From Bellilinea caldifistulae (GTDB lineage Bacteria > Chloroflexota > Anaerolineae > Anaerolineales > Anaerolineaceae): a stretch of 32,000 nt of DNA. This document shows, one piece after another, positions 19,996 through 28,908 of the stretch. The notes below the pieces were generated by a model, which saw only the letters and a program-made list of their open reading frames with translations, was not told the origin of the DNA and made no database searches. Every line of letters starts with the position of its first letter. Position 1 is the first letter of the stretch. Location of the stretch: NCBI RefSeq assembly GCF_001306055.1, contig NZ_LGHJ01000024.1:63938-95937 (forward strand). The letters run 5' to 3'. A program made the translations under genes and the position numbers.

Positions 19996-22422
19996 ATGGT
20001 AAGAAGGAAAGCATCTGTTTTCGTTTTATGGGTTATTCTTGCAGGGGGAGTTTTTGGGTTAGCGTTTTACCAGGCCGATTCACCGACGGCAAAGGCTTAT
20101 GCCCTTCCGCAAATGCAGGCAACGACCGCACCGCCGCAGAGGGATCAGTCCCGGCGGGTCTTACGGGTTGGCGGGGATCAAAGCTACCCGCCTTATGAAT
20201 ACCTCAATAACGGCGTCCCCACGGGTTTCAATGTGGACCTGATTCGTGCGGTGGCAGCCGAGATGGGGTATGAGGTGGAAATCACGCTTGGCCCGTGGAG
20301 CGAGGTGCGGCAGGGATTGCTGGACGGCAAGTACGACCTGCTGATGGGAATGGTGCCGACCAGTGAGCGCGAAAAAGATTACGATTTCAGCATCCCTTAC
20401 ACCTTCATTACCTTTGATCTGTTTGTTCCAACCCGTTCCTCTGTGCGTTCGCTTGAGGATCTCAAAGATCAAGCCATTGTTGTGCAGGCTGGCGGACTGA
20501 TGCAGGAATACCTGCGCGAGGAAGGGTTTCCGGGGGAAGTCATACTGGTGCAGGATATTGTCAACGCGCTGAGGCTGGTCAACGAGGAAGCCTATCCGGC
20601 GGCTTTGCTGAATCGTCTGCAAGGTCAGTTTCTCATCCGTGAACTGGGCCTGACCAACATTCGGCGGGTCGGTTTAGATGTGCAATCGCGAAAGTATTGC
20701 ATTGCCGTTCAGGACGGTAATAAAGAACTGCTTGCCGGCTTGAATGAGGGGTTGTATCTGGTCAGTTCCAGCGGCAAATTGGGCGAGATTCAAGAACAAT
20801 GGTTTGGCGTCTACGAACAGCCTCCCTCCGCGGGTTACCGCCCGTTATTGATTGGGCTGGCGGTTATCGGTGGAATGTTACTGATCACTGGTGGGTTGTC
20901 ATGGTCACTGAGCCGGCAGGTGGAAAAGCGCACCCGTGAGCTCAAGCAAAGCGAAGAAAAGTACCGCCTGCTGGTGGAAAATGCCAGCGAGGGAGTGGTG
21001 GTTTCCTGCGGAGATGAACTGGTGTTTGCCAACCGGGCTGCGGCAGCCATTACCGGATACCCCGTAGAGGAATTAATTGGAATCAAGATTGCCCAACTGG
21101 TTCACCCGGATGATTACCTGATGGTGATGGATCGTTACCGGCGCCGTCTGCGCGGCGAGGATGTCCCGGCTTATTATGCCTTTCGATTGGTCAACCGCGA
21201 ACGTCAGGTGCGTTGGGTTCAGGTTCACGCCGTGGTGATTGAATGGGACGGTAAACCGGCAACACTGGATATGTTTGTGGACATAACCGAGCAGCGTCGG
21301 GCTGAGGAACAGGTGCAGCGGCAATTGCGTCATCTGGCAGCGCTGCGGGCAGTGGATATGGCGATTACTGCCAGCCTTGACCTGACCAATACGCTTCGGG
21401 TGGTTTTAGAACAGGCCACCGTTCAAGCGGGGGCGGATGCAGCCAGTGTGCTGCTGCTGGAAGACGAATCGCAGGAACTGGTTTTTGCAGCCGGGCAGGG
21501 TTTTCGGCGCGGAGTGGACGGCCGCATCCGCGTCCGTTTGGGGGAGGGTTTTGCCGGGCAGGCAGCTCTGAAGCGCCGCGCGATTCGAGTGGCCAATTTT
21601 GACGCGGGCGGAGATTTGTTTTGGACGCCCGAGCGAATCCGCCAGGAGGGTTTTGTCTCATACCTCGGCTTGCCGCTGATTTCCAAAGATCAGGTCAAGG
21701 GCGTGCTGGAAATTTTTCACCGCAGCGAGTGGAACACGGATCCGGCCTGGATGAACTTTGTTGAAGCGCTTGCCGATCAGGCCGCCATTGCGATTGATAA
21801 CGCTCAATTACTCAAAAACCTCAAAACGGCCAATCAAGATCTGATACTGGCGTATGATGATACGATTACCGGCTGGGCGCGCGCTTTGGAATTGCGGGAC
21901 GGAAATACCGAGGGGCATTCTCAGCGGGTTGCCGAACTTGCCGTGGAACTGGCGGCGGCCATGGGACTGCGCGGCGATATCCTGACTCACATCCGCCGGG
22001 GAGCCATTCTCCATGATATTGGCAAAATGGCCATTCCCGACAGCATCCTCAAGAAGAGTTCCGGCTTAACCGATGAGGAATGGCAGGTCATGAAGATGCA
22101 CCCGGTCTACTCGTATAATCTGCTTTCCCAGATTGAATTCTTGCGGCCGGCGCTGGATATTCCCTACGCTCATCATGAACGCTGGGATGGGAGCGGCTAT
22201 CCACGCGGGTTGAAGGGCGAGGAGATTCCGCTGGCGGCGCGCATTTTTGCGGTGGTGGACGTGTGGGACGCCCTGACCGATGACCGCATGTACCGCCCGG
22301 CCTGGAAGCCCGAAGAAGCGCTGGCCTACATCCGCTCGTTGAGCGGGACTCAATTTGACCCGCGTGTGGTCGAGGCTTTTTGTGCGCTGATCGAAAAGCG
22401 CTTTCGGGCGGGCGCTGCGTGA
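19996..22422 (+). CDS. Receptor-type HD-GYP phosphodiesterase: periplasmic SBP_bac_3 domain, TM, PAS, GAF, HD-GYP
   Basis: The start is set at ATG 19996 (MVRRKASVFVLWVILAGG...), just after the FGGY stop; the ORF-track start 19858 overlaps that gene. SBP type-3 domain (LRVGGDQSYPPYEY...GFNVDLIRAV). Second TM (LLIGLAVIGGMLLITGG). PAS (LLVENASEGVVV). GAF (LEQATVQAGADAASVLLL...GFAGQAA). HD at 22012-22017 (HDIGKM) and HHERWDGSGYP with GYP at 22195-22203. Confidence 0.9.
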   Translation: MVRRKASVFVLWVILAGGVFGLAFYQADSPTAKAYALPQMQATTAPPQRDQSRRVLRVGGDQSYPPYEYLNNGVPTGFNVDLIRAVAAEMGYEVEITLGPWSEVRQGLLDGKYDLLMGMVPTSEREKDYDFSIPYTFITFDLFVPTRSSVRSLEDLKDQAIVVQAGGLMQEYLREEGFPGEVILVQDIVNALRLVNEEAYPAALLNRLQGQFLIRELGLTNIRRVGLDVQSRKYCIAVQDGNKELLAGLNEGLYLVSSSGKLGEIQEQWFGVYEQPPSAGYRPLLIGLAVIGGMLLITGGLSWSLSRQVEKRTRELKQSEEKYRLLVENASEGVVVSCGDELVFANRAAAAITGYPVEELIGIKIAQLVHPDDYLMVMDRYRRRLRGEDVPAYYAFRLVNRERQVRWVQVHAVVIEWDGKPATLDMFVDITEQRRAEEQVQRQLRHLAALRAVDMAITASLDLTNTLRVVLEQATVQAGADAASVLLLEDESQELVFAAGQGFRRGVDGRIRVRLGEGFAGQAALKRRAIRVANFDAGGDLFWTPERIRQEGFVSYLGLPLISKDQVKGVLEIFHRSEWNTDPAWMNFVEALADQAAIAIDNAQLLKNLKTANQDLILAYDDTITGWARALELRDGNTEGHSQRVAELAVELAAAMGLRGDILTHIRRGAILHDIGKMAIPDSILKKSSGLTDEEWQVMKMHPVYSYNLLSQIEFLRPALDIPYAHHERWDGSGYPRGLKGEEIPLAARIFAVVDVWDALTDDRMYRPAWKPEEALAYIRSLSGTQFDPRVVEAFCALIEKRFRAGAA

Positions 22423-23757
22423 TCAGGCAGCCTGTGCAGCCAGGCGATCCAGGTATTCTTTGATCTGCGGCACGCCGGTCAATTTTTCGTAGAAAAAGTT
22501 GTTGACCAGATTGATGACCTCATCACGAGCGGCTTCTGCCTGTGGTGAAAGTTCCTGCCCCGGCACTTCATTGCCCAGAATACTGCGCAGTTTGAGCAGC
22601 ATGCGCACGATTTCGGTTTCTTTTTCACCTTCCAGTACATCCACAACGGTAACAATCAGCCTGTCGGTTTCCGAAAGCAGGGTGTGGAGCGGCAGGCTGG
22701 AACCGGCGGTGAAAGTATCGTCAATGGTGCGGATCAATGACCAGACCTGATACAGAACGGTGGCGGGCTCGTCAAACAATTCACGCAGGTAGGCAGCCTC
22801 TTCGTATTTACCGGTCAGGCGGAAGATGTTGTACATGCGCTTGGCGGCTTTGCCGTAATTTGGCGAGGCAGTCACGTATTTGCGTACTTCTTTTTCCAGC
22901 GCGGCCACATAATCATCCAGTGCGTTGCTGTCCACCTGTTTGGCCAGTTTGGTGAAAATCGGGATGGATTCGGCATCCAGATAGACTTCCTGAAAGTAGG
23001 GGTCGAGATACCCGTCCAGCGGGGTGATCTTGCCGTCCGGGGCTTCCCAGGTCACGTCGAGCATGTTGCTGGCGTTGACAAGAGTCTGGTCAATTGGGTC
23101 GGCAATCACCCAGTCCAGCTTGCACCAGCCGGGATCGTGCGCGGCCTGTTCCCAGCCGATTTCAACCGGTTCGCCCTGGACAAAAGTATCTGAAAGCCGC
23201 CCGGCTTCAATCTCGGCTGGTGTCCAGGCAATGGGGCTGCCGGCTTTGTGCAGGCGTCCGTTGTGTTCTACATTCTGCGGGTAGGAGCCGAATTTGACCT
23301 CAATCAGTTGATAAGTGTCGCCGCGGGCTGTAGAGAGGGCTTTTTCGCGCATGATTTTTGCCAGCACACGGCAGGCTTCCTCGCGGGTGGGGGCTTTGAT
23401 GTTGACCCGCTCGAAGAAATCGGCATCGCCGGGGTAGGACTGGATGCGCGACTGGGCGGCCGAGCCGGAAAGCGCCAGGGCGGTCTCGACCAGTCCGGGG
23501 ACATCGGAAAATTCGACCAGTTTACCAACCCGCCGGAAGTAATCCAATCGCTCCGGGCTGAAATCCAACAGGGTGATGCGGTGTCCGAAAACGCCCTGCC
23601 GCACGTCTATGGCGACATCGTCTTCTTTTCGCATGGAGCCCATTGCAGCCAGCCACTGCAAGGCCTCGCTTTCATCCAGTTCAACACCCATGCGCCGGGC
23701 TGATTCGATGATCTTTTTCAGGTTCTGGCTGGCACTTTCGGAAATTGAGTCATTCAT
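22423..23757 (-). CDS. Uncharacterised protein with Pol-beta-fold nucleotidyltransferase signature (OAS/CD-NTase-like spacing) and helical C-terminal half
   Basis: 444-aa ORF. AAGGAG lies 8 nt upstream of ATG 23757, embedded in the end of the exonuclease gene. The motif LSGSAAQSRIQSYPGDADFFERV (23472..23404) matches hG[GS]-x11-D-h-D-h. Candidate third carboxylates are in KLDWVIAD or NMLDVTW. No other family motif recognised. Confidence that this is a real CDS is high; confidence in the NTase function is about 0.45. Confidence 0.8.
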   Translation of the reverse strand: MNDSISESASQNLKKIIESARRMGVELDESEALQWLAAMGSMRKEDDVAIDVRQGVFGHRITLLDFSPERLDYFRRVGKLVEFSDVPGLVETALALSGSAAQSRIQSYPGDADFFERVNIKAPTREEACRVLAKIMREKALSTARGDTYQLIEVKFGSYPQNVEHNGRLHKAGSPIAWTPAEIEAGRLSDTFVQGEPVEIGWEQAAHDPGWCKLDWVIADPIDQTLVNASNMLDVTWEAPDGKITPLDGYLDPYFQEVYLDAESIPIFTKLAKQVDSNALDDYVAALEKEVRKYVTASPNYGKAAKRMYNIFRLTGKYEEAAYLRELFDEPATVLYQVWSLIRTIDDTFTAGSSLPLHTLLSETDRLIVTVVDVLEGEKETEIVRMLLKLRSILGNEVPGQELSPQAEAARDEVINLVNNFFYEKLTGVPQIKEYLDRLAAQAA

Positions 23758-23762
23758 CGCTT

Positions 23763-24365
23763 TTACTCCTTGGCAGAAACAGGATTGGATTGATCTCTTT
23801 CAAGCATGGCCAGCATGTTTTCGAAGAGGACTGCCTGATCGAGCGCATCTTGCAGGGCGTTGTGGGTCAGGCCATCTGCCTGACGGAAGAGGCGGTGCAG
23901 GTGGCTGCCGGATGTTTTCTCCCACGGCTGTCCGCTCAGTCCCATGTAAAAGGCTTTGATGTCGAGCGCTTTGTGGCCGAAGGGGTTTCGGCCCAGGTAG
24001 CGGATGAAGTAGGTGTGGACAAACATCCAGTCAAAGGGGGCATTGAAAGCCAGAAAAATGGGTTTGTGGGAAGGCGGTACAACCTGATGAACCCAGGTTT
24101 CGAATTTCAACAGGGCTTGTTCGGGGGGCAGACCGTTTTGACGCAGCGTTTCCATGCTCAAACCATGGACAGCCGCGGCCTGCGGGTCAACTGCATCGCG
24201 ATCGGGCCGGAGTTCCACATAAAAGGTTTGACGGGGCTGCACAACCGTGCAGGCGCCGATGGAAAGCAGGGCAAATTGATCGGGGGTCGGGCCGGCGGTT
24301 TCCACATCTACGCTGATGTAGGCGGGCATTTCGGCGCGTATATCACTCAGGGATTGATTGTTCAT
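23763..24365 (-). CDS. DEDDh-type 3'-5' exonuclease (DnaQ/RNase T/Orn superfamily)
   Basis: Exo I YISVDVETAG (D at 24308..24306, E at 24302..24300). Exo II FLAFNAPFDWMF. Exo III HNALQDA (H at 23864..23862, D at 23849..23847). ATG 24365 is preferred. The ORF-track TTG at 24401 coincides with a -35 hexamer. The start is uncertain by 12 codons. Confidence 0.85.
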   Translation of the reverse strand: MNNQSLSDIRAEMPAYISVDVETAGPTPDQFALLSIGACTVVQPRQTFYVELRPDRDAVDPQAAAVHGLSMETLRQNGLPPEQALLKFETWVHQVVPPSHKPIFLAFNAPFDWMFVHTYFIRYLGRNPFGHKALDIKAFYMGLSGQPWEKTSGSHLHRLFRQADGLTHNALQDALDQAVLFENMLAMLERDQSNPVSAKE

Positions 24366-24372
24366 GTCTGTC

Positions 24373-24401
24373 AGTATAACCTCCTTGCCGGTTAAATTCA
24401 A
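24373..24401 (-). promoter_or_regulatory. Sigma70-type promoter of the exonuclease/NTase cassette, positioned for a leaderless transcript
   Basis: On the minus strand: -35 TTGAAT (24401..24396), 17-nt spacer, -10 TATACT (24378..24373), 7 nt, then ATG (24365..24363). Confidence 0.5.
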
Positions 24402-24528
24402 TCATCTGGATTGTGGATGCCATTTTTTGAACCCCCGGTTTGGGATGAATCATCCTGCGTCCCTAACAGCCTTGCGGGAGACCGCCACGCTCGCCAGGGC
24501 GTTTACAAATGTTATGGCAGGGGCATTG

Positions 24529-25440
24529 TTATTGTTGTACCGGGCTGGGGTTTTGCAAAGGGGCGTTTGTCGGTTTCTGGCGGCTGATGTTGACCAGATA
24601 AATCCCGCTCAGTACGATGATGCCGCCGATCCATTGGGGGGGCAGCAGCGCTTCACTGGCCAGCGGAATGGCCATCAGGGCGGTCAACACCGGCTGGGCG
24701 ATCATGGTCGGTGAAACCAGCGAGGCGGGTAAATGCCCGAGCGCGTAACCGACCGAGAAATAGCCGATCACCTGCGAAATCAATCCGGCGCCGAGGAAAG
24801 CCAGCAGGGTGGGGGTGGAATAACCCCACAACGGGTTGCCGAGCAACAGGTTGGCTGCCAGTAAAATCAGGCTGGCAACGACGGTTATGAGAAAGACATA
24901 GGTGAGGGTGGAAAAGCGGGCGCGTCCGCGCTGGGTGGTGAGGAAGTAGGCAGCGTAAAACAGACTGGAAAGCACGGCTAACAGGTTGCCCTGATTCAAC
25001 TGCGGGCGGGCGAGGAAGTCACTGCCCAGCACCAGCGCAGCCCCGCCAATTGCCATGACCAGCCCCAGCCAGAAGCGGGCCGAAAGACGCTCGCGCCAGA
25101 TCAAAAAGGCAACCAGCGCCACCCACAGCGGGGCCAGGTTGTTCATCAAGGTGGCGTTGGCGACCCGCGTAAAGTTGATGGCGGTTGCCCAGGTGGCATG
25201 ATCGAGGGCGGTAAACAGCCCGCCTAAGAGCGGCAGGAACAGCCAGCGCCGCTCAATCCGGCGGGCCGAGACCGGCTGACGGAGAAAAATCACCAGAAAT
25301 ACCAGTGAGGCTACCGCCATGCGATAAAACGAGGTCACCGCACCGGGGGCATCTGCCCAGCGCACAAACAGAGAGGACAGGCTGAGTGCCAGGATGCCGC
25401 TGACCAGCGCAAGGTAAGGGAGGATTTTCGGTTGATTCAC
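24529..25440 (-). CDS. DMT superfamily transporter (EamA family, two EamA repeats)
   Basis: About 10 TM helices with the duplicated EamA pattern. The start is set at GTG 25440, overlapping the HAD gene stop as GTGA (25437-25440). The ORF-track start 25470 would overlap by 34 nt. Confidence 0.85.
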   Translation of the reverse strand: MNQPKILPYLALVSGILALSLSSLFVRWADAPGAVTSFYRMAVASLVFLVIFLRQPVSARRIERRWLFLPLLGGLFTALDHATWATAINFTRVANATLMNNLAPLWVALVAFLIWRERLSARFWLGLVMAIGGAALVLGSDFLARPQLNQGNLLAVLSSLFYAAYFLTTQRGRARFSTLTYVFLITVVASLILLAANLLLGNPLWGYSTPTLLAFLGAGLISQVIGYFSVGYALGHLPASLVSPTMIAQPVLTALMAIPLASEALLPPQWIGGIIVLSGIYLVNISRQKPTNAPLQNPSPVQQ

Positions 25441-26217: not shown

Positions 26218-27240
26218 TCAGTATCCCAGTTCGGGGTCGTACAGATTATACAGGATATTCCCGCTCAAGTAGCGTTTTAAATTCTCCAAAAACAAATCCA
26301 TTGCCCGTTTGCTGTAATGGGCGCTGATACCGGAAATGTGCGGGGTGATGATGACATTCGGCATTTTCCACAAGGGGCTGGAGGGGGGCAGCGGTTCTTC
26401 GGGGAAGACATCCAGCGCGGCGCCGGCGATGCGTTTTTCCTGTAAGGCGGCGATCAGGGCGGCGTGGTTGACAATTCCGCCACGGCTGACATCCACCAGA
26501 AAAGCAGACGGCTTCATGGCAGCCAGTTCGGCTTCGCCGATCAAACCGCGGGTTGCCGGGCTGAGCGGCAGGCAGACGACCACAAAATCACACTCTTTCA
26601 ACATCGAACGCAAAGCCTGAATGGGATACAGACGGGTGAACAGGTCGCCGTTGGGGTCGCCCAGACCTTCGGGCGTGTAACCGTTATCTTCGGGGTGGCG
26701 CACATCGCGTTTGGCTGCCAGAATGCGGCTGCCAAAGGCATGCAGCAGACGGGCAACCTCGCGCCCGATACTGCCGTAGCCGACAATGCCGACCGTGCTT
26801 TCACGCAGTTCCACGGCGCGGAAACGCTCCCAGCGGTCTTTTGGCCATTCGGCACGCGCCTGAAAAGCCGCCAGTTCGGGGATTTTATGTCCCAGTGCCA
26901 GCAGCATGAGCAGGACATGTTCGGCAACCTGCGGGGCGGCTGCCCCGCTCAGGGTGGTGATCTGGATGTCCTTCTTGCCCATCAAGGGGTGGTCGGCCAT
27001 GTGATCTACCCCGGCAAAGTGAAACTGCACCCAGCGCAGGTTGGGCACCCATGCCGGATCGGGCAGGATACGGTCGGTGTACAGGATTTCAACCTGTTTC
27101 CACAGGTCAAGGGGAATGTCCTCTGCGCTGCGCACCGTGTGGGTCATCAGGCGGATGCGCGGCGAAACCTGGATGACTCTTTCCGTCTGTTCGGGTGGAA
27201 ACGAAACGGTAAACAGGGTGGGAATGGGGGTTGTGCTCAT
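26218..27240 (-). CDS. D-isomer-specific 2-hydroxyacid dehydrogenase (NAD-binding; glyoxylate/hydroxypyruvate reductase or PGDH-like)
   Basis: Rossmann motif VGIVGYGSIGREVARLL. Catalytic R/E/H context VDVSRGGIV, ALDVFPEEPL, ITPHISG. Its start overlaps the CoA-transferase B stop as ATGA (27237-27240). Confidence 0.9.
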   Translation of the reverse strand: MSTTPIPTLFTVSFPPEQTERVIQVSPRIRLMTHTVRSAEDIPLDLWKQVEILYTDRILPDPAWVPNLRWVQFHFAGVDHMADHPLMGKKDIQITTLSGAAAPQVAEHVLLMLLALGHKIPELAAFQARAEWPKDRWERFRAVELRESTVGIVGYGSIGREVARLLHAFGSRILAAKRDVRHPEDNGYTPEGLGDPNGDLFTRLYPIQALRSMLKECDFVVVCLPLSPATRGLIGEAELAAMKPSAFLVDVSRGGIVNHAALIAALQEKRIAGAALDVFPEEPLPPSSPLWKMPNVIITPHISGISAHYSKRAMDLFLENLKRYLSGNILYNLYDPELGY

Positions 27241-28001
27241 GATCCTTTCAGGTAAATTCCTTGGGGGTCGAGTTCCTCGCGCAGGATGCGCAGTTCCTCT
27301 GCGGTGGGTGGCTCGGTGGTGAGCAGACGGGGGGCAGCCCGCAGCGGCCAGCCGGTGTTTTCCTGCGCCTGTTCGAAAGTGGCGCCGGGGTGCAGGGCGG
27401 TCAAAATCAACTCGCCGTTCTCGTCCGGCTCCAAAATGCCCAGGTTGGTGACGACCGCCTGCGGGCCTTTGCCGCGCACGCCGGTGGCTTCGCGTTCGGC
27501 ACGCCCGCCCAGGAAGCCAGCCGAAGTGCGAAAGTCCACCCGCGCCGGAAAACGTCGCTTCTGGTGGGGGGTGATGATGTAACAGCGGTTTGCCCAGGCG
27601 GCGATTTCCATCGAGCCACCCGAACCGGGCAGGCGCACTTTGGGGCGGTGGTAATCGCCGATCACCGTGGCGTTGATGTTTCCGTACTGGTCAATCTGCG
27701 CCCCGCCAAGAAAGCCGACATCCACGTAGCCGCGCTGCAAGTAGAGGCTGAAAATGTCGTACATGCCGACCACCGAGCACGCCCCGGAGACGAGGGTGGG
27801 GTCGCCAATCGAAAGCGGCAGGCGCGAGGGGCGCGCCCCGATCACGCCGGCTTCGTAAATCATCACCAGATGGGGAGCGTGGGTGCGCATGGCCAGATTG
27901 CAGGCCAGATTGGGCAGCCCCACGCCGACAAAAACCCGGTCGCCATCGCGCAGCAGGCGGGCGGCGTTGATGGTCATCAATTCGGAGGCGGTGTAGTTCA
28001 T
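27237..28001 (-). CDS. Family I CoA-transferase, subunit B (glutaconate/3-oxoacid CoA-transferase beta-like)
   Basis: The start is set at ATG 28001 (MNYTASELMTINAARLLRDGDRVFVGVGLPN...), with GGAG 9 nt upstream and a 1-nt gap after the subunit A stop. The ORF-track 5' extension to 28262 lies inside subunit A. Confidence 0.85.
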   Translation of the reverse strand: MNYTASELMTINAARLLRDGDRVFVGVGLPNLACNLAMRTHAPHLVMIYEAGVIGARPSRLPLSIGDPTLVSGACSVVGMYDIFSLYLQRGYVDVGFLGGAQIDQYGNINATVIGDYHRPKVRLPGSGGSMEIAAWANRCYIITPHQKRRFPARVDFRTSAGFLGGRAEREATGVRGKGPQAVVTNLGILEPDENGELILTALHPGATFEQAQENTGWPLRAAPRLLTTEPPTAEELRILREELDPQGIYLKGS

Positions 28002-28002
28002 C

Positions 28003-28908
28003 TCAATAATCTCCATAATTGACAGGATGGCTGAGACGCGGGCGGACGTGCAGGCGGCGGTGGGTTTCTTCGCCCAGCTTTTGCCAGTATTCGGTGCGGT
28101 CTTTGACGCCGTACACCCATTCCTCCATCCAGCGTTGGGTCTCTTCGGGCGATTCGCTGATTTTGTCCCATTCCAGGTAGAAGGCATTGTCACGGTCGTA
28201 GTAGCCCTGGGTGTAGGAAGGGTGGGCGCAGTACGGCACATGGCAGACCGCATCCACCACAAAATCGGGGATGAGGGTGCGGTTTGGGTCGGAGCGGATG
28301 ACGGCTTCGTCCACGATTTCTTCGGCGGTCAGAATGACGGTTTTGGCGGCAAAGGCGGCTTCCTTTTGCTCGCCGATGATCCCCCAGATGTGGGCATTGC
28401 CGTGCACATCGGCGCGCTGGACATGCACAATCGCCACATCGGGGGTGAGCGGCGGCACGGTGACCACTTCCCGGCCGGTGTAGGGGTCGGTGACGCGCCG
28501 GTAGTTCGGGTTGACCCGTTCCAGATCACCGGCGGCGGTCGGGTTCATCGGCATGAAGGGCAGGCCGGCTGCACCGGCTTGCAGGCGGGAAATCATGCTG
28601 AAGTGGGAGTATTCCTCCCATTCCAGCCGCCCGGCTTCGATTTCGGTACGCACAATCCGCAGGGAGCCGACGCCGGGATTGCCGATGTAGGAGAAGATGA
28701 TTTTACGGGCGCAGCCGGCGGCGACCATCTGATCGTAGATCAGGTCGGGTGTGGCGCGGGCGAGGGTCAGGTTCCTGCGCCCCTGGCGGATGATTTCATG
28801 CCCGGCGGCAAATGGGATGAGATGGGTGAAACCGGCGGCGTAGATCGTGTCACCGTCGTGGACGAATTGAGCGATGGCTTCGTTGAGGGAACACAGTTTG
28901 TTGGTCAT
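28003..28908 (-). CDS. Family I CoA-transferase, subunit A (glutaconate CoA-transferase alpha-like, ~300 aa)
   Basis: MTNKLCSLNEAIAQFVHDGDTIYAAGF...IIRQGRRNLTL...SYIGNPGVGS is a typical CoA_trans subunit A N-terminus. It is immediately followed by subunit B. Confidence 0.85.
   Translation of the reverse strand: MTNKLCSLNEAIAQFVHDGDTIYAAGFTHLIPFAAGHEIIRQGRRNLTLARATPDLIYDQMVAAGCARKIIFSYIGNPGVGSLRIVRTEIEAGRLEWEEYSHFSMISRLQAGAAGLPFMPMNPTAAGDLERVNPNYRRVTDPYTGREVVTVPPLTPDVAIVHVQRADVHGNAHIWGIIGEQKEAAFAAKTVILTAEEIVDEAVIRSDPNRTLIPDFVVDAVCHVPYCAHPSYTQGYYDRDNAFYLEWDKISESPEETQRWMEEWVYGVKDRTEYWQKLGEETHRRLHVRPRLSHPVNYGDY

Follow-up and report, generated by a model that had tools for sequence, protein, structure and literature searches.

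The locus examined here raises the question of what a DEDDh exonuclease and a neighboring protein without any recognizable sequence family do together. Both are encoded on the minus strand of a 32 000-nt stretch of Bellilinea caldifistulae (class Anaerolineae, phylum Chloroflexota; assembly GCF_001306055.1, contig NZ_LGHJ01000024.1, positions 63,938 to 95,937), hereafter the window, and all positions refer to this stretch (Table 1). An earlier note, made from the sequence, had described them as an autonomous cassette of an exonuclease and a nucleotidyltransferase (NTase) of the Pol-beta fold, and had considered a minimal defence system among its possible functions. We found that a Cap18-type exonuclease stands here beside a nucleotide synthase, as it does in the cyclic-oligonucleotide-based antiphage signaling system (CBASS), but that the NTase belongs to a different family, that no effector accompanies the pair and that its distribution is that of housekeeping genes. 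Our literature search found no description of the pair or of the NTase family and, to our knowledge, Cap18-type exonucleases have hitherto been discussed solely as CBASS accessories.

The DEDDh motifs named in the earlier note for the first gene were confirmed, and on re-reading of the sequence the coordinates given for these motifs, for the TAA, ATG and AAGGAG at the gene junction and for the NTase motif were all correct. The catalytic set of the exonuclease (D20, E22, D112, H168 and D173) is complete. Cap18 had been named only as a possibility, and this was borne out by several comparisons. The PADLOC model PDLC00753 matched the protein with 219 bits (E = 1e-65, 175/184 model positions), and the same model gave 298–309 bits for exonucleases located within or beside CBASS operons on plasmids. 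The best solved structure by sequence was 7T2S, the Cap18 of Escherichia coli upec-117 (E = 1e-42, residues 10–186). The closest plasmid relatives, with 46–51% identity, were also found within or beside CBASS operons: the 51%-identical protein is encoded by a gene that converges on a type II CBASS operon (SAVED, nucleotidyltransferase, ThiF, JAB), and the gene of the 46%-identical protein comes right after those for HORMA, TRIP13 and a TIR effector. RNase T and Orn share the DEDDh fold and the catalytic residues with the Bellilinea exonuclease, but the match to RNase T was weak (E = 7e-4), roughly 40 orders of magnitude weaker than that to Cap18. Pfam returned generic RNase_T and Rv2179c-like matches only, and the NCBIfam models for DnaQ and RNase T scored far below their cut-offs. 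By sequence, the exonuclease thus belongs to the Cap18/CBASS Exo family.

The residues of the Bellilinea exonuclease and of the Vibrio cholerae Exo correspond at a constant offset of +11 (N108 to N97, D112 to D101, H168 to H157 and D173 to D162). At this offset, the pocket residues P15, V55, N97 and D49 are kept as P26, V66, N108 and D60, and the pocket residue E51 corresponds to Q62. With regard to function, Cap18 has been named as an uncharacterized 3΄-5΄ exonuclease, the catalytically dead mutant of which had no effect on protection against phage lambda (PMC9122588). A preprint reports that three CBASS Exo homologs cleave 2΄-5΄ but not 3΄-5΄ dinucleotides, that CBASS Exo enzymes degrade a 2΄-5΄ oligoadenylate pentamer, that the Serratia marcescens Exo was inactive on DNA or RNA and showed no interaction with cGAS, and that Exo destroys the linear pppA[2΄-5΄]pG intermediate and thereby sets an activation threshold (10.1101/2025.03.04.641389).

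The second gene encodes a product with 100% identity to the hypothetical protein BECAL_00702. Besides the databases listed in Table 1, a phmmer search against PDB sequences gave no family match, and the CD-NTase profiles of Pfam, PADLOC and NCBIfam gave none even at E values up to 1. We therefore turn to the structure model, which was computed with AlphaFold2 on 29 diverse homologs (predicted local distance difference test, pLDDT, 89.5; predicted template modelling score, pTM, 0.86). The core of the model runs from strand 90–97 through G98-S99 to strand 111–121 with D111-x-D113, helix 125–142 and strand 149–158 with E153, and is accompanied by an N-terminal helical region, a large beta-rich insert and an all-helical C-terminal domain. 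On the evidence of this model and of the Foldseek search described below, the 444-aa protein is a Pol-beta-superfamily nucleotidyltransferase, as had been proposed, and one that no sequence family accommodates.

The only significant Foldseek matches of the model in the PDB were the entries 4AMS, 4AMQ and 4XUL (GTP complex) of Megavirus chilensis Mg662 (E from 8.6e-7 to 7.2e-6, probability 1.0, template modelling (TM) score 0.47–0.58, nearly full length). Among the viral models of BFVD, 15 giant-virus and virophage proteins matched (E from 3e-14 to 2e-6, TM up to 0.65), from virophages (Zamilon, a V21-like protein, YSLV5, Qinghai Lake virophage and Mavirus) and from giant viruses (mimivirus, pithovirus, sylvanvirus, tupanvirus and klosneuvirus). 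The Bellilinea NTase therefore shares its fold, over nearly its full length, with Mg662 and the virophage proteins of the Sputnik V21, Zamilon and OLV5 type, but sequence identity is only 10–17%, a family profile of the 29 homologs matched no PDB sequence, Mg662 included, and the hosts on that side are eukaryotic giant viruses and virophages. We know of no exonuclease partner for these viral proteins. The PDB title describes Mg662 as 'a Megaviridae ORFan gene encodes a new nucleotidyl transferase', and V21/OLV5 appear in a published listing as proteins of unknown function that have 'no detectable domains' (PMC3671162).

The PDB matches that followed Mg662, namely FAM46/TENT5, AadA, CdnE, MiD51, NF90 and OASL, were uninformative (E 0.008–0.5, TM ~0.2). 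We considered and rejected three kinships in this list. The CdnE structures 6E0L and 7X4A reached E values of 0.14–0.35 with TM scores of 0.16–0.24 and a root-mean-square deviation above 16 Å, so that a structural relation to CD-NTases was not upheld. For the OAS/cGAS group (Mab21, OAS1_C), there was no Pfam match, and OASL (4XQ7) gave E = 0.47 and TM 0.20–0.25. The likeness to OAS, cGAS and CD-NTase enzymes that had been read from the motif spacing was consequently not supported (E 0.14–0.47 and TM ~0.2 for CdnE and OASL). An aminoglycoside nucleotidyltransferase, the example of a resistance family into which the protein might have fallen, was not recovered either: Pfam and NCBIfam gave no match, and AadA and ANT(3΄΄)(9) gave insignificant fold matches (E 0.09–0.3, TM 0.17–0.26).

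The active-site residues of the NTase are strongly conserved. Each of G98, S99, D111 and D113 is retained in 28 of the 29 homologs, and the lone exception looks frameshifted. The Pol-beta core with D111 and D113 was recovered on the model. For the third carboxylate, E153 is a candidate, placed by the order of secondary-structure elements in the model, and D234 and D248 of the insert are alternative candidates. G157 is invariant in the 29 homologs, and the insert further holds the near-invariant residues K213, W216, D252, Q256 and Y259. In the C-terminal domain, R307, Y309, N310 and R313 are invariant; by analogy with the helical substrate-binding domains of nucleotidyltransferases of the poly(A) polymerase and OAS type, the basic/aromatic patch to which they belong likely binds nucleoside triphosphates (NTPs) or phosphate. 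The NTase appears to be catalytically intact, and a dead scaffold is unlikely because the active-site residues are conserved. Nor is the gene a chance reading frame, since more than 6,200 relatives were found in a set of 5.8 billion proteins (602 clusters at 50% identity), relatives occur in at least 561 species-level genomes, and the motif residues are kept in 28/29 homologs. The best 80 loci all carry Anaerolineae or Chloroflexota labels, apart from a few metagenome-assembled genomes (MAGs) labelled Armatimonadetes or Actinomycetota. Two relatives are fusion proteins with the NTase module at the C-terminus: P0236 (1291 aa), which looks eukaryotic and carries AbfB, F-box-associated, C-type lectin-like and PLAT regions, and P0169 (1067 aa), which carries a PQQ_2 beta-propeller.

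We then compared the neighborhoods of these best 80 genome loci (60–95% identity) with those of 80 metagenome loci of a sister lineage (47–66% identity). The exonuclease adjoins the NTase in ~85 of the 160 loci and does so in three orientations, which argues for a functional tie between the two genes. Among the genome loci, it lies directly upstream on the same strand in 64 of 80, of which 77 have room for an upstream gene; among the metagenome loci, it lies upstream and divergent in 14, in tandem in 5 and convergent downstream in 1 (L154). Linkage of the two genes is accordingly strong in the main clade (64/77), whereas it is absent in many remoter clades. When all flanking open reading frames (ORFs) of the 160 loci were clustered, no other family was present in more than 10–12 loci, and the conserved unit therefore consists of exactly two genes, in agreement with the autonomous cassette that had been proposed.

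A third gene was observed in a subset of the loci. In 10 of them (L038, L045, L047, L052, L055, L064, L065, L066, L073 and L080), a gene for a 2H phosphoesterase (Pfam 2_5_RNA_ligase2, E = 6e-12; for example L045:7834-8397) lies on the same strand 50–520 nt downstream of the NTase, giving the order exonuclease, NTase, 2H phosphoesterase. The 2H proteins are only 43–79% identical to each other, and the arrangement thus has some evolutionary depth. The 2H superfamily includes 2΄-5΄ phosphodiesterases and 2΄-5΄ RNA ligases, and the presence of such a gene after the NTase is a hint towards 2΄-5΄ chemistry.

Some loci depart from the common arrangement. In six (L015, L022, L042, L056, L072 and L079), a gene for a DUF3786 protein begins 3–27 nt past the NTase stop (for example L079:7321-8004), and three of the six are without the exonuclease; L056 and L079 both belong to one MAG (CAVUPD01), and this genome therefore carries two exonuclease-less paralogs. 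At L084, a more distant Cap18-like exonuclease (PDLC00753, E = 4e-29) lies convergent and downstream of the NTase. This locus (JADEXU010000272.1, labelled Nostoc sp. LEGE 12450) is a 7.3-kb contig that also encodes ArgRS and HicAB, its NTase is 60% identical to the Bellilinea protein, and it may stem from Chloroflexota DNA that contaminates a cyanobacterial assembly or may have been acquired by transfer.

The genomic context of the NTase is not that of a defence gene. In the window and as recurrent neighbors in the 160 loci, we found no CD-NTase, effector, HORMA/TRIP13, E1/E2/JAB or Cap regulator. The PADLOC scan of the window neighbors detected no defence gene, apart from one trivial Rossmann-fold cross-match, and thus confirmed the previous observation that no effector or defence island is visible. 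No relatives of the NTase were found on plasmids or among IMG/VR viral contigs. In the sister lineage (47–55% identity; L093–L117 group), the order leuS, NTase, comEA, comEC is conserved, usually without the exonuclease (examples are L095:73-1575, L109:6418-7098 and L105:3025-5688). On the basis of this housekeeping synteny, the lack of nearby PADLOC genes and the lack of plasmid and IMG/VR relatives, the NTase has the profile of a vertically inherited core gene of Anaerolineae and not that of a gene in a defence island. The suggestion of a minimal defence system is hard to maintain for a pair that is inherited within Anaerolineae at 60–95% identity among metabolic and housekeeping genes, and the module looks like one of housekeeping signaling or nucleotide metabolism rather than part of an anti-phage island.

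What, then, could such a pair do? Our favored reading, which we hold tentatively and at somewhat less than an even chance, is that the two genes encode a synthase and a hydrolase for a 2΄-5΄-linked (oligo)nucleotide product, the receptor of which is encoded elsewhere. The NTase would condense NTPs into a 2΄-5΄-linked linear or cyclic (oligo)nucleotide, and the co-expressed exonuclease would hydrolyze linear 2΄-5΄-linked products or intermediates. In this way, the exonuclease would keep basal amounts of the product low or impose a threshold, in the manner of CBASS Exo with cGAS-like enzymes, and the receptor or target would lie elsewhere in the genome. We infer this product chemistry and this direction of regulation because characterized relatives of the exonuclease are reported to act on the 2΄-5΄ products of a neighboring nucleotidyltransferase and because a 2H gene is present in one sub-lineage. 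A wider form of the proposal, in which Anaerolineae and some other Chloroflexota possess a constitutive, non-defence 2΄-5΄ messenger or oligonucleotide pathway with an NTase of the Mg662/V21 type that is checked by a 2΄-5΄ exonuclease of the Cap18 type, is a bolder conjecture, which we consider rather improbable.

The proposal borrows from CBASS the logic of a hydrolase that restrains a synthase. In E. coli upec-117 (CdnC-Cap18) and in the cGAS-Exo systems of S. marcescens and V. cholerae, an exonuclease of the same DEDDh family is encoded beside a Pol-beta-superfamily nucleotidyltransferase, as in the Bellilinea pair. In contrast to these systems, the Bellilinea NTase is no CD-NTase by sequence or by fold ranking, the exonuclease gene comes first, no effector, Cap2/Cap3 or HORMA/TRIP13 regulator is present, and the pair is a vertically inherited part of the core genome of Anaerolineae rather than of a mobile defence island. 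In concept, the pair also resembles OAS or cGAS enzymes balanced by 2΄-5΄ phosphodiesterases of the 2H family (AKAP7, coronavirus ns2 and rotavirus VP3), and a gene of that family follows the NTase in the 10 loci described above. It differs from them in that neither the sequence nor the fold of the NTase significantly matches OAS or cGAS, that sensing of double-stranded nucleic acid is not evident and that the hydrolase of the pair is a DEDDh enzyme.

Several observations weigh against a 2΄-5΄ synthase and hydrolase. In the 160 loci, no receptor or effector gene was seen to be linked to the pair. The NTase occurs without the exonuclease in 13 of the 77 main-clade loci and in ~50 of ~70 sister-lineage loci (47–55% identity) with room for it; in a Thermomicrobiales-like clade (~35% identity), none of the NTase genes has an exonuclease, and the neighbors are PRC-barrel and DUF1002 genes. 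Since many NTase homologs lack a nearby exonuclease, the latter is not obligatory. The downstream genes of 179–182 aa in the Thermomicrobiales-like clade were considered as diverged exonucleases and rejected, because they encode PRC-barrel proteins. The 2΄-5΄ specificity of Cap18-type enzymes rests on one preprint, and it would have to be carried over to the Bellilinea exonuclease by analogy from proteobacterial enzymes that are ~45–51% identical to it. The stacking residue F120 has two potential counterparts, H131 (constant offset) and F129 of an invariant NPFG motif. The 2H phosphoesterase is confined to one sub-lineage, and its association with the pair may be synteny alone. In the literature, we found no functional study or biochemistry for Mg662 (4AMQ/4AMS/4XUL) or Sputnik V21 and no biochemical data for the NTase family.

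Of the other explanations, the one that survives best is a pair for tailing and trimming RNA 3΄ ends, in which the NTase would act without a template on RNA or tRNA ends in the manner of TENT or poly(A) polymerases and the exonuclease would trim them. RNase T and the CCA-adding enzyme are a known precedent for such joint action. The FAM46/TENT5 non-canonical poly(A) polymerases stand next to Mg662 in the Foldseek ranking (E 0.008–0.07), the exonuclease weakly resembles RNase T and the Rv2179c-like exoribonuclease family of Pfam, and the core-genome setting next to LeuS in one lineage would suit RNA housekeeping. However, the TM scores of FAM46 are only 0.15–0.2 (for 6W38 and 8EXE, E 0.008–0.009, probability 0.38–0.54 and TM 0.15–0.21), the exonuclease is far nearer to Cap18 than to RNase T, and one Cap18-type enzyme neither acted on nor bound DNA or RNA (10.1101/2025.03.04.641389). 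We regard this explanation as unlikely.

A minimal CBASS-like system, in which the NTase would signal upon infection, the exonuclease would serve as the effector or as a regulator of the threshold and any further effector would be encoded elsewhere, is very unlikely. It could appeal to the label of the matching PADLOC model ('Effector; Exonuclease') and to the fact that every characterized relative of the exonuclease sits within or beside a CBASS operon, but the NTase matches no CD-NTase profile, no accompanying CBASS or defence gene recurs in the 160 loci, the NTase gene is kept at 60–95% identity in housekeeping synteny across a whole bacterial class, and its relatives are absent from plasmids and IMG/VR contigs. 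Equally improbable is that the NTase acts on small molecules or proteins, in the manner of aminoglycoside nucleotidyltransferases or AMPylating enzymes, and that the exonuclease has a separate or loosely related role: the weak Foldseek matches to AadA and ANT(3΄΄)(9) (E ~0.1), the same-strand EamA transporter and HAD hydrolase genes kept in several lineages and the many NTase homologs without an exonuclease would fit it, but the aminoglycoside-enzyme matches are insignificant and unaccompanied by a Pfam match, the EamA/HAD synteny is confined to close relatives, and the exonuclease linkage in three orientations indicates a functional tie.

The features of the pair are listed in Table 1. As called mechanically, the ORF of the exonuclease spans 23763..24401 (212 aa) and opens at the TTG at 24401. 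The ATG at 24365 is most likely its start, as the proteins of close relatives and E. coli Cap18 align from this position onwards. The claim that the two genes are translationally coupled fits the short gap in the window but does not hold as a general rule: the median distance from exonuclease to NTase is 37 nt, and the genes lie ≤10 nt apart, or overlap, in only ~14–16 of the 64 tandem loci. A Shine–Dalgarno (SD)-like motif precedes the NTase start in 62 of these 64 loci.

Table 1. Positions of the exonuclease–NTase pair and its features in the 32 000-nt window
Feature	Position	Strand	Remarks
Cap18-family DEDDh exonuclease gene	23763..24365	-	200 aa from ATG at 24365
444-aa NTase gene	22423..23757	-	no Pfam, NCBIfam, PADLOC or PHROGs match
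Promoter-like element	24373..24401	-	-35 TTGAAT 24401..24396, 17-nt spacer, -10 TATACT 24378..24373
Exonuclease motif I, D20-V-E22 (metal ligands)	24300..24308	-	invariant in 20 paired homologs
Exonuclease motif II, FNAPFDW (N108, D112)	24027..24047	-	N108 and D112 invariant in 20 paired homologs
Exonuclease motif III, H168-x4-D173 (H-N-A-L-Q-D)	23847..23864	-	invariant in 20 paired homologs
Exonuclease stop TAA	23765..23763	-	next ATG (NTase) at 23757; gap 5 nt
SD-like AAGGAG	23766..23771	-	within final exonuclease codons, 8 nt ahead of NTase ATG
NTase core motif LSGSAAQSRIQSYPGDADFFERV	23404..23472	-	G98-S99 after strand 90-97; D111-x-D113 at start of strand 111-121
E153, candidate third catalytic carboxylate	23299..23301	-	strand 149-158, after helix 125-142; E/D in 27/29 homologs
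Beta-rich insert, residues ~160-260	22978..23280	-	invariant D234, W237, D248
All-helical C-terminal domain, residues 262-444	22426..22974	-	basic/aromatic patch K303, R307, Y309, N310, R313 at 22819..22851

A promoter of the operon's own had also been proposed, and a consensus scan found a pair resembling -35 and -10 elements upstream of the exonuclease, TTGAAT-17-TATACT, which ends 7 nt ahead of the ATG at 24365. The element TTGAWT-17-TATACT-7-ATG is kept in the four closest genomes (L001–L004), despite a difference of ~120 nt in the length of the spacer that separates it from the EamA gene upstream. In the window, ~120 extra bases (24402..24528) lie between the EamA stop and the promoter-like element relative to L002 and L003, in which the element follows the EamA stop codon nearly directly. 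Of the 83 exonuclease loci, 21 have a TA[ACT]A[AT]T hexamer whose end lies 5–7 nt ahead of the exonuclease start, compared with a mean of 0.84 and a maximum of 5 loci in shuffled sequences, and the histogram of hexamer-to-start distances has a sharp peak at 6 nt. The recurrence of this position points to a promoter that belongs to the operon itself and to a transcript that would often be leaderless or near-leaderless. An AAGGAGG 14 nt upstream of the ATG at 24365 was considered as a ribosome-binding site but was dismissed, because it falls within the promoter spacer and lacks conservation in L002–L004. Neither a riboswitch nor any other RNA element was detected when Rfam was run over the whole window and, in a sensitive search, over 22200..24700.

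On the other side of the pair, the NTase stop (22423..22425, minus strand) directly abuts the end (22422) of a convergent plus-strand gene for an 854-aa SBP_bac_3-PAS-GAF-HD-GYP protein, with zero intergenic bases, and no terminator-like site was found between the two genes (22420..22425). A functional link to this gene was considered; we treat the arrangement as synteny, because it is conserved in close relatives only (L001–L004, L017 and L053). The same holds for the EamA and HAD flanks, which in the 80 genome loci are kept in close relatives only. The other neighbors in the window are genes for a 2-hydroxyacid dehydrogenase, CoA-transferase subunits, an aldehyde dehydrogenase, an FGGY kinase and a hybrid histidine kinase. 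As called, the ORFs of the CoA-transferase subunits (27237..28262 and 28003..28908, within 27237..28908) overlap by ~260 nt, and the TTG start of the downstream one is probably over-extended.

These results place a Cap18-type exonuclease in a new setting, namely a stable pairing with an uncharacterized NTase family in hundreds of genomes of one bacterial class and outside any defence context. Even if its chemistry proves to be ordinary, the pair is a well-defined, conserved and probably leaderless operon that is worth naming. If the 2΄-5΄ reading is true, 2΄-5΄-linked nucleotide signaling in bacteria would reach beyond immunity, and the pair would offer a tractable bacterial model for the orphan NTase fold of giant viruses and virophages. 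The wider conjecture, if true, would suggest that CBASS Exo was recruited from, or donated to, a housekeeping pathway, and would provide a first functional handle on the orphan proteins Mg662 and Sputnik V21.

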